A DNA stretch of 6,669 nucleotides, from the IMG/VR virus record IMGVR_UViG_2671180781_000011; one strand, 5' to 3'. Positions within the stretch are counted from its first letter, which is position 1. The number at the start of each line of letters is the position of its first letter. Made by a program: the position numbers and the translations under genes. The stretch comes from a virus (Duplodnaviria > Heunggongvirae > Uroviricota > Caudoviricetes). Shown in pieces: positions 124 through 1,851 of this stretch. The notes under the pieces were generated by a model. That model was not told the DNA's origin, made no database searches, and worked only from the letters and a program-made list of their open reading frames with translations.

Positions 124-1851
124 GTGCTGTTGTGCCAGCCTCACGAAAACGTTCGCGAACTGGAGGTCATGACGGGGCTACAGCGCGAGGGCCTGCAGGG
201 ATGGAATCTCGATACGGTAGCTGTCGTTGTAAACGATATCGGAGGATTTGCCACCGCTATGGGATACGAGCAGCTACGGGCTTACACTGGTGGTCTTCCC
301 CTGTATGTAGAGAGCGCCGCAAAAATCGCCGTTTCTGATTATGAGCGTAATGTCGATGCTCTGTGTGCTGAACTCCAGCAACAAACCCATACTGCGGAAA
401 CCGCCCAAGAAATTATTCTGTCACGTGTATTTCAGGGATTTGAATCACTACTTCAGAGCGCGCTGGCATTGTTCAGTCTCTCTGACGTAGGGCTGAGTCG
501 CGAAGAGATTTCTACGCTCCTAATCAATTCGCTGAACATTTCACCAAGCAGTGCTGCTTCTTTAATTAGGAAAATGCGCGCTACTGGCACTATTGAAATT
601 TATGGAAACCAGACCCTGAAGGTACATGATGCTGTCAGGGGGCTAGGACTGCAACATCTGGAACTGATGGATCAGGGTATATCGAACAAAGCGCTACTAG
701 CGCTGAAAGACCTTTTAGTTGAAAGTCTTCATAATACCCGCAATACAAAACGGTTATCGTTGTTGACTCAACTTTATATTAAGCTCAATGATGTCACGAC
801 GTTGATCGAACTCTCAGGCCAAGAAATGTTTTATGAGATGGGCGTGACGGTCGACATTCTTGCAAGCTTGGAGCGTGCTGCAACATCGGACTTATTGGGA
901 CCTGTTCATAAATTCTGGGCATTGGATGGCCTTGTTTTCGTTGAGCTTAAAGACGGAATATCCGACCACATTGCTCAGAGGTTAAACATCATGGGAGCTT
1001 TACTTGCGGAGCACAAGTTCGGCTATCAAGAAGAGATGGCCTATGCAATGAAACGAATGTTATTTTCGGCAGAAAGCAATGATGCACGAGAAGTTCAAAA
1101 GCTGGCACAGGAAGTCCGCCCCCAACTCCCAGATGAAGAACATAAACGCATCTTTGACTACAACCATGCCATTGCACTCTGGAGATTAAAAAAACTCAAG
1201 GATGCTGAAACATTAAGCTGTAATGTTATACAAGGGTACTATTCTTTATTTGGTATCACACCTGCTGATGTCATAGGAAAAAACGCCGACGCATTATGGA
1301 AAACTATTAATCATTCCGAAAATATGCAGGAACACTTTAAACATATGGCTGATGCTCTGGAGTTGCTGGCCAGAATTCGTGATGCGCAGGGAAAACTGTC
1401 ACCATTACTGCGTATTCATTCGATGAAGTTCTACAATCTGGCCATGGCCCCGGAATCCATGGTCAGGGTGGGCCAAGATCTGGCGGATGAGTTTGTTGCC
1501 ATAAAGGATTACGACGGTGCCAAGGAAGTCATGGAGCAACATGTCCTGCCGGTTGTCAATGAGGCAGGTCTAGTACATCGACTGATTCAGGTTCGAAGCC
1601 AATACGCAGTCATATTAGCACTATCGGGTCAGCATAAAGCAGCTGATGTCGAAATGCAGCGCCTTGCTCCCTATATCGAAGGCCTCACAGGTGTACAGCG
1701 TCAAGAAATCCAAAATCAATCAAATTACATCGTACAGCTTGCCCATAAAGCAGCAAAGACTAAATTAACTGAAGTTTTTGGTGCGGTCGGCCGGAATGAA
1801 CAATGCCCCTGTGGCTCGGGAATAAAGTACAAAAAATGTCACGGTGCCTGA
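124..1851 (+). CDS. Large protein of unknown function with a C-terminal SEC-C-type Cys3His zinc-binding motif; likely prophage accessory (moron) gene; 5' end uncertain and possibly disrupted by the adjacent IS
   Basis: 575-codon open frame ending ...EQCPCGSGIKYKKCHGA (CxC-x8-CH, the SecA/YecA-type SEC-C knuckle). GTG at 124 has no SD; the first in-frame ATG at 169 has GGAGG only 2 nt upstream. The frame stays open back to the IS junction at 98/99. Sampled stretches are about 32-42% GC, lower than the downstream phage genes. Confidence 0.55.
   Translation: MLLCQPHENVRELEVMTGLQREGLQGWNLDTVAVVVNDIGGFATAMGYEQLRAYTGGLPLYVESAAKIAVSDYERNVDALCAELQQQTHTAETAQEIILSRVFQGFESLLQSALALFSLSDVGLSREEISTLLINSLNISPSSAASLIRKMRATGTIEIYGNQTLKVHDAVRGLGLQHLELMDQGISNKALLALKDLLVESLHNTRNTKRLSLLTQLYIKLNDVTTLIELSGQEMFYEMGVTVDILASLERAATSDLLGPVHKFWALDGLVFVELKDGISDHIAQRLNIMGALLAEHKFGYQEEMAYAMKRMLFSAESNDAREVQKLAQEVRPQLPDEEHKRIFDYNHAIALWRLKKLKDAETLSCNVIQGYYSLFGITPADVIGKNADALWKTINHSENMQEHFKHMADALELLARIRDAQGKLSPLLRIHSMKFYNLAMAPESMVRVGQDLADEFVAIKDYDGAKEVMEQHVLPVVNEAGLVHRLIQVRSQYAVILALSGQHKAADVEMQRLAPYIEGLTGVQRQEIQNQSNYIVQLAHKAAKTKLTEVFGAVGRNEQCPCGSGIKYKKCHGA

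Follow-up and report, generated by a model that had tools for sequence, protein, structure and literature searches.

What is encoded by a long open reading frame (ORF) that lies in a lambdoid prophage between the end of an insertion sequence (IS) and a hok toxin locus, and that resembles nothing familiar apart from a zinc knuckle at its C-terminus? The DNA in question, here called the window, is the 6,669-nt virus record IMGVR_UViG_2671180781_000011, which is the entire draft contig CYBR01000061.1 (GCA_001277515.1) and stops within the IS. The ORF occupies positions 124-1851 on the plus strand, has a GTG start and comprises 575 codons. The initial annotation had taken it for a protein in its own right, carried as prophage cargo and possibly anti-phage in function. 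We find instead that it is the 3' remnant of a prophage cargo gene cut by IS629, corresponding to codons 358-932 of a 932-residue protein. Our overall reading, to which we assign a probability of about 0.8, is that the intact form of this gene encodes a nuclease-ATPase sensor resembling the antiviral STAND (Avs) proteins and that the copy in the window is a pseudogene.

The break in the gene coincides with the edge of the IS. Window positions 1-98, on the minus strand, form the left end of an IS629/IS1203 element of the IS3 family. They are identical at 98 of 98 positions to an annotated IS1203/IS629 end in E. coli O26:H11 11368 (NC_013361.1), and similarity ceases exactly at position 98; the annotation beneath the database matches reads 'IS3-like element IS1203 family transposase'. 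Both hallmarks of the element were found, namely the terminal inverted repeat (TGAACCGCCCCGG...; in the window CCGGGGCGGTTCA at 86-98) and the start of the transposase gene orfA, which begins at position 44 (MTKNTRFSPEVRQR) and reads leftwards out of the window, so that its first 14 codons are included. Homology to the intact gene begins at position 99, the third base of codon 349. From there, window 99-1851 (plus strand) corresponds to nucleotides 1047-2799 of an intact 2,799-nt coding sequence (locus L001, 7960-10758) with no mismatch over 1,753 nt, and thus runs from the third base of codon 349 through codons 350-932 to the stop codon. In this gene the GTG at 124 falls on the internal codon V358, and upstream of position 99 the same reading frame passes through IS sequence. 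The 575-codon frame is open because it continues the frame of a larger gene. The product of the intact gene (932 aa, WP_000264572.1) is annotated as a 'SEC-C metal-binding domain-containing protein', and hokD follows it.

Codons 1-349 are absent from the window copy, and with them the Cap4-like nuclease, Walker A (248-255) and Walker B (332-336). With all three gone, the remnant can neither hydrolyse ATP nor cut DNA. The remaining part lacks any evident promoter or start site: a search of window 1-200 gave no sigma-70-like promoter, and transcription of the IS transposase is directed away from the remnant. Because the IS629 insertion removed the nuclease effector and the P-loop, the window copy is very probably non-functional and inert. 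The absence of any divergence from the intact gene points to a recent insertion, and the copy is best read as a pseudogene of recent origin that has acquired no mutations since. By megablast, the intact gene is present in 16 of 5,426 complete E. coli genomes (matches cover the query from 94 to ~2400). The IS-gene junction was found in none of these genomes, all 16 full-coverage matches beginning at query position 94, and the truncated product occurs on only two contigs of the collection searched.

The intact protein begins with a predicted DNA nuclease. Residues 25-77 match the Pfam profile Cap4_nuclease (27.1 bits; cut-off 26.2), and this score above the gathering threshold, together with the catalytic residues, places the domain in the Cap4/DUF4297 PD-(D/E)xK family (PF14130). 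Among PADLOC profiles the N-terminal nuclease matches Lamassu LmuA (E 5e-7) and, more weakly, DUF4297 and HamA; the other matches in that database are confined to the SEC-C tails of the E2, E1-E2 and PDC-S12 models. Residues 239-364 match AAA_22 (32.6 bits; cut-off 27), with a weaker AAA_16 match that falls below its cut-off (21.4 against 32.6 bits), and residues 914-931 match SEC-C.

The residues expected of these domains are strongly conserved. We used an alignment of 52 homologues with 49-92% identity and, for greater depth, 18 representatives reaching down to 27% identity. Invariant in the 52 homologues are E53, D55, D57, E59, Q70 and K72, which make up a D...QxK site of the PD-(D/E)xK type; G248, G251, G253, K254 and T255 of Walker A (G248xxGxGKT255); V333, D335 and N336 of Walker B; L359, L360, Q362 and P363; G414 and P416 of a 'GxP' motif (GGLPL, codons 413-417); and H525 and D526 of a VHD motif, which is the counterpart of the MHD or winged-helix histidine of STAND and NLR proteins. 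D55, D57, Q70, K72, G251, G253, K254, D335 and P416 remain invariant among the 18 representatives, where H525 and G414 are at least 90% conserved. The full set of STAND motifs (Walker A, Walker B, GxP and the winged-helix histidine) is therefore present in the intact family, of which the window retains only GxP and the histidine.

An AlphaFold2 model of the intact protein (mean pLDDT 80.8, pTM 0.62) arranges these motifs in a definite order. An alpha/beta N-terminal domain (15-~215) is followed by the P-loop domain (240-365), a helical domain (365-445), a winged-helix domain (450-540, with helices and a beta-hairpin at 483-538), all-helical repeats (541-909) and a low-confidence tail that bears the SEC-C knuckle. 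Projected onto the plus strand of the window, the remnant starts within the last strand of the nucleotide-binding domain (RFVLLCQP, codons 355-363) and continues through the helical domain with GGLPL (window 289-303), both assigned from the model and from conservation to 100-399. On the same basis, the winged-helix domain spans 400-672, with the VHD motif (codons 524-526) at 622-630. The TPR-like alpha-helical repeats, which we presume to sense a ligand, occupy 673-1779, and the SecA-like metal-binding domain (codons 914-931; C918, C920, S922, Y926, C929 and H930), identified with Pfam and phmmer, lies at 1792-1845. The earlier description of a long helical protein with a zinc knuckle suits this helical-domain, winged-helix and TPR sensor half, but it omits the half with the nuclease and the P-loop. 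Taken together, the profile matches, conserved residues and model indicate that the 932-residue product is a single-chain Avs-like (antiviral STAND, or bacterial NLR-like) protein. It would consist of a Cap4/DUF4297-type PD-(D/E)xK DNA nuclease, a STAND P-loop NTPase with helical and winged-helix domains, a TPR-like sensor of ~370 residues and a SecA-like tail of 20 residues.

The closest structural neighbour supports this comparison. In a Foldseek search of the PDB, the first rank went to SeAvs3 (Salmonella Avs3) in complex with phage terminase (8dgc, E 7.9e-13). The next ranks were plant NLR resistosomes (wheat G10, tomato NRC2 and NRC3, and also RPP1 and WRR4A), Cdc6/ORC, clamp-loader ATPases, TPR proteins and Hachiman. 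SeAvs3 (PDB 8DGC) and SeAvs7 are antiviral sensors in which a Cap4 nuclease, a STAND NTPase and TPR repeats follow one another as they do here, and both tetramerise upon binding a phage protein and then cut double-stranded DNA (PMC13581612). The tripartite Avs architecture of effector, STAND NTPase and repeat sensor (Gao 2022, Lee 2026) is found in the intact allele (nuclease 25-~215; NTPase, helical and winged-helix domains 240-540; TPR 541-909), but not in the window copy, which begins at codon 350. The protein differs from SeAvs3 in length (932 against ~2000 residues), in having a sensor of only ~370 residues and in showing no detectable sequence similarity to it. It also ends in a SecA-like metal-binding tail, which is mentioned for no Avs protein in those portions of the literature that were searched. 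Lamassu LmuA, CBASS Cap4 and Hachiman HamA have only the nuclease domain in common with it: it has no SMC-like LmuB, SAVED domain or HamB helicase, and its nuclease is fused to a STAND NTPase. Membership of Lamassu was rejected, as the match covers only positions 14-109 of the 373 in the LmuA profile and no SMC-like gene adjoins the E. coli loci. The non-immune STAND proteins PH0952 (6MFV) and MalT are also among the closest known systems.

The initial annotation could assign the ORF to no named system. An effector-STAND-TPR kind can now be recognised, although matches to PADLOC 2023 models still do not extend beyond a single domain, and the protein belongs by sequence to none of the Avs families defined by those models. 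NCBIfam likewise contains no family that spans the whole protein. A recent survey of defence-associated STAND proteins distinguished at least 90 families by structure and 198 clades, with E. coli Avs19 and Avs22-24 among the representatives (Lee et al. 2026; PMC13581612). Its sensor clustering took sensors of at least 400 residues (PMC13581612). About 390 residues follow the winged-helix domain of the 932-residue protein, which may therefore have fallen just short of that clustering. Judged against PADLOC 2023, NCBIfam and the PDB, the intact protein appears from its sequence and predicted fold to be an uncharacterised Avs-like family.

If the intact protein works in the manner of SeAvs3, EcAvs4 and SeAvs7, its TPR sensor would bind a protein made by an infecting phage. 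Binding would lift autoinhibition and allow ATP-bound NTPase domains to oligomerise, which in turn would gather the nuclease domains into an active assembly. DNA would then be cut indiscriminately and the infection aborted. An anti-phage role, as suggested at the outset for the ORF, is in our view the best reading of the intact gene, given its domain architecture, fold matches and defence-island neighbours, but it does not extend to the severed copy in the window.

The genomic distribution of the family agrees with such a role. An exhaustive profile search at E<=1e-30 returned 391 representatives of 50%-identity clusters, nearly all of 880-960 aa and aligned end to end. Their hosts include Enterobacterales, Vibrio, Shewanella, Aeromonas, Pseudomonas, Alteromonas, Variovorax and Rhizobiales, and family members are also carried on 44 plasmids. 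Five of six independent contexts contain Gabija-like pairs, AbiH, TIR, PIN or toxin-antitoxin genes. The V. cholerae homologue lies with a Gabija-like pair (OLD-TOPRIM and UvrD), AbiH, PIN_12, AAA_13 and an integrase, and the Yersinia homologue with a Gabija-like pair and other AAA_21/AAA_13 ATPases. A Gabija-like pair, DUF5677 and TIR/SEFIR genes accompany the Enterobacter homologue on an element with a TraI_2_C (relaxase-type) gene. In Pseudomonas, AbiH is 60 nt downstream of homologues inside metal-resistance islands, and in Alteromonas the homologue is accompanied by AbiH, SocA-Panacea and ImmA-type genes next to Tn7 tnsD/E. The association of Avs genes with defence islands and mobile elements is thus found for this family too, in a qualitative survey without statistics. 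Comparison of the neighbourhoods, which had been suggested at the outset, revealed mobile and defence contexts but no constant neighbour gene, as would fit a one-gene system.

Two neighbours recur. A Gabija-like pair directly adjoins homologues at loci L004, L009, L012, L014 and L015. AbiH adjoins or lies near homologues in Pseudomonas, Alteromonas and Vibrio (loci L004-L008, L017 and L018), in some cases within 20-60 nt. It may be that the SEC-C STAND gene, the Gabija-like pair and AbiH move between genomes as one multi-system cassette. At the DNA level, the SEC-C STAND gene is absent from every deposited phage genome. The only matches in the phage collection are relatives of the protein at 33-40% identity, encoded on two unannotated 'Bacteriophage sp.' metagenomic contigs from human faeces (MT836905.1, 3171-5993; MT836015.1, 837-2552).

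Within E. coli, the intact gene always lies between DUF977 and hokD in lambdoid prophages, where it stands alone, and it does so in two prophage backbones. This slot holds different genes elsewhere. In K-12 Qin it is filled by relBE directly upstream of hokD, as had been noted when the locus was first described, and in O26:H11 11368 (locus L010, NC_013361.1, 4592-6677) by an alpha/beta hydrolase gene, which an equally oriented IS1203/IS629 copy has likewise split. At least twice, therefore, cargo at this position has been inactivated by IS629. In Qin/Rac-like prophages, the junction of DUF977 and hokD is an exchangeable site for cargo, occupied by relBE, the alpha/beta hydrolase or the SEC-C STAND gene, and the proposal that the ORF is accessory cargo at a variable prophage position holds. 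In some carriers of the intact gene, such as NZ_CP032265.1 (locus L011), an extra hypothetical ORF of 393 nt (5335-5727) sits between hokD and a 279-nt ORF, and a different set of tRNA genes (Ile, Lys, Thr and Gly; 8625-8934) follows Q. Such differences show that the surroundings of the slot have undergone mosaic exchange.

The right border of the slot in the window is a hokD-type type I toxin-antitoxin locus at 1960-2284 (plus strand), recognised from Rfam, Pfam and the annotation of relatives. It comprises a sok match (Rfam RF01794, 1960-2134, listed on the plus strand, 110 bits), a hok gene at 2129-2284 (Pfam HOK_GEF; annotated hokD in relatives) and an overlapping mok-like ORF at 2072-2284. 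Both flanks of the ORF had been named correctly from the start. Its AT-richness had also been pointed out, and the difference from the downstream phage genes is real but modest: GC content is 46.5% in the ORF and 50.8% in window 2452-4839, and the Q gene, at 45.9%, is equally AT-rich.

The C-terminal tail is the part of the protein that the remnant keeps whole and that gave the ORF its label. On the 575-residue translation, Pfam SEC-C (PF02810) matches residues 557-574 (E 4.8e-10, 39.6 bits; cut-off 20.4). The motif CPCGSGIKYKKCH, of the form CxC-x8-CH, is encoded at window 1804-1842, and the tail has the CxCx8C[HC] ligands, the conserved serine and the aromatic residue of a SecA-like metal-binding domain. 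Using phmmer, it matches the SecA metal-binding peptides 1sx0, 1ozb and 1tm6 and YchJ-C (9l6b). It shares 16 of 22 residues with E. coli SecA 878-899, among them the metal ligands, the serine and the aromatic position, and in both proteins the motif sits on a flexible tail at the extreme C-terminus (pLDDT 43-63 here). The equivalent domain of SecA is a binding site for zinc or iron, for SecB and for ribosomes, and the same has been suggested for YecA and YchJ, whose tails are reported to be 73% identical over this stretch (10.1101/613315).

The likeness ends there. Upstream of the last 20-45 residues the protein does not resemble SecA, UPF0149 (YecA) or UPF0225 (YchJ), in agreement with the first description. 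Membership of these families was rejected, since the NCBIfam equivalogs (PRK05590, PRK01617, PRK10396 and others) match only those last residues, at 11-33 bits against cut-offs of 140-160. An origin of the ORF as a fragment of a housekeeping or phage structural protein was considered as well. It is a fragment indeed, but its parent is an accessory defence-type gene.

In the alignment of 52 homologues, conservation of the SEC-C residues reaches at least 90%. The tail is kept in 105 of 115 close full-length homologues and in 66 of 105 distant representatives; the motif is therefore not fortuitous. The 37% of distant representatives without it belong to scattered lineages and end cleanly ~30 residues earlier. 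From these alignments the tail appears to be a conserved but dispensable accessory that has been lost repeatedly. A terminal SEC-C motif is also shared with the PADLOC E2/E1-E2 and PDC-S12 models and with lactococcal Rugutis, in which it stands at the N-terminus (PMC11381338); the rest of each of these proteins is unrelated. SEC-C-type tails occur within the PADLOC profiles PDLC00833, PDLC00865, PDLC00870-872 and PDLC04917, which represent unrelated defence or candidate-defence proteins. The motif thus seems to recur in defence proteins. Apart from Rugutis, literature searches on SEC-C and phage defence returned nothing relevant. The DefensePredictor paper and a domain-centric paper (NAR 2026) mention neither SEC-C nor Cap4, and the main text of Lee et al. 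2026 does not mention SEC-C. Speculatively, the tail may tether the sensor to SecB or ribosomes, by analogy with the host factors that are repurposed by Avs7 (EF-Tu) and bNACHT25 (DnaJ) (PMC13581612, Discussion). It is conceivable, though we regard it as unlikely, that the SecA-like tail recruits SecB or the ribosome and so either places the sensor at nascent, unfolded phage proteins or couples its activation to the state of protein targeting.

Several observations weigh against the view that the window holds a dead copy of an Avs-like sensor. PADLOC v2.0.0 (2023) yields no Avs/AVAST model at E<=1, only single-domain matches. Searches of PDB sequences with the single sequence and with a family profile retrieve SecA-type tails only and no solved Avs chain at E<=10. 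Architecture and predicted fold, not sequence homology, are thus what connects the protein with Avs. The Foldseek TM-scores to SeAvs3 are also low, at 0.19 and 0.10, which reflects the doubled length of SeAvs3 and a different orientation of the domains. No paper linking SEC-C with STAND or Avs proteins was found in literature searches, and the Serratia ficaria homologue has only housekeeping neighbours and no defence genes. For the window copy itself, a search of called proteins with the 349-residue N-terminal query gave no near-identical fragment, the best match being 77% identical; the IS may simply have split the gene, or the 5' half may have been deleted. The remnant may, moreover, be expressed from a weak or IS-borne promoter.

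Such expression would matter if the remnant, started for example at ATG 169, served as a sensor-only protein that sequesters the phage trigger or acts as a dominant negative on intact copies. Its frame is intact for 583 codons and unmutated, the TPR sensor and metal-binding domain fold independently in the model, and GGAGG lies immediately 5' of ATG 169. The lack of mutations is, however, what a recent insertion would leave in any case and hence no sign of selection, and GGAGG is merely 2 nt from the ATG, which is too close for a ribosome-binding site. Together with the missing promoter, the outward-reading transposase and the rarity of the truncated allele, this makes a sensor-only function quite improbable. 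Still harder to credit is the idea that faulty assembly created the junction and that the source genome carries an uninterrupted gene. In its favour, the window is a short draft contig with its end inside a repeat, but the break falls exactly at the terminal nucleotide of the IS, a signature of transposition and not of a chimeric join, and short-read assembly over a real insertion usually leaves a contig ending slightly inside the repeat copy.

Other explanations concern the intact family. As STAND proteins include non-immune members and the tail is that of SecA, the protein could be a STAND-type regulator or a Sec-linked protein-quality-control factor. This is improbable, as its Cap4-type nuclease has invariant catalytic residues, the homologues matched (Cap4/DUF4297, LmuA and HamA) are anti-phage effector domains, five of the six independent contexts are defence islands on mobile elements, no DNA-binding output domain is present, and the SEC-C tail is dispensable in more than a third of distant representatives. 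Alternatively, the protein may work only with a neighbouring Gabija or AbiH as a multi-gene module. Gabija-like pairs directly flank the Vibrio, Yersinia and Enterobacter homologues, and AbiH is 20-60 nt from the gene in Pseudomonas and Alteromonas. However, the E. coli prophage copies between DUF977 and hokD have neither neighbour, and the orientation and distance of AbiH and Gabija vary among loci. Gabija is, moreover, a characterised defence system by itself (10.1101/2023.05.01.538945). An obligate module is thus very improbable, and we retain the reading of a self-contained Avs-like sensor gene severed in the window by IS629.

Further features of the window lie downstream. Three tandem tRNA genes follow Q at 5050-5299, which ARAGORN assigns as Met-CAT, Arg-TCG and Arg-TCT; the first is a tRNA-Ile in the RefSeq annotation of related prophages (L001 and L010). 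The layout resembles the ileZ-argN-argO cluster upstream of stx in Stx phages, although no stx is present here. At 5440-5901, an in-frame stop near 5605-5607 divides a TerB-family ORF into two pieces that share one frame (5440-5607 and 5755-5901). RefSeq records an internal stop in TerB of the relative with the intact locus (L001), so the TerB pseudogene probably predates the IS629 event. The small RNA STnc100 (Rfam RF02076, 100.8 bits; gathering score 47) maps to 6070-6242, between the DUF3927 and DUF1737 genes.

These findings overturn nothing in current understanding. For the locus itself they amount to a correction of annotation: under the database label 'SEC-C metal-binding domain-containing protein' lies the sensor half of a probable immune receptor, cut off by the IS, and the window offers no gene to clone unaltered. 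For the family, they point to a compact (932 aa) and widespread Avs-like nuclease sensor in Gammaproteobacteria and beyond, with ~390 clusters at 50% identity, which PADLOC 2023, NCBIfam 2026 and PDB sequence searches match only domain by domain. Its conserved SecA-type tail bears on whether bacterial NLR-like sensors use SecB or the ribosome as an interface. If this tail does recruit either of the two, it would be a second, genetically hard-wired case of host-factor repurposing, and this might explain why SEC-C tails recur on unrelated defence proteins such as PADLOC E2, PDC-S12 and Rugutis.

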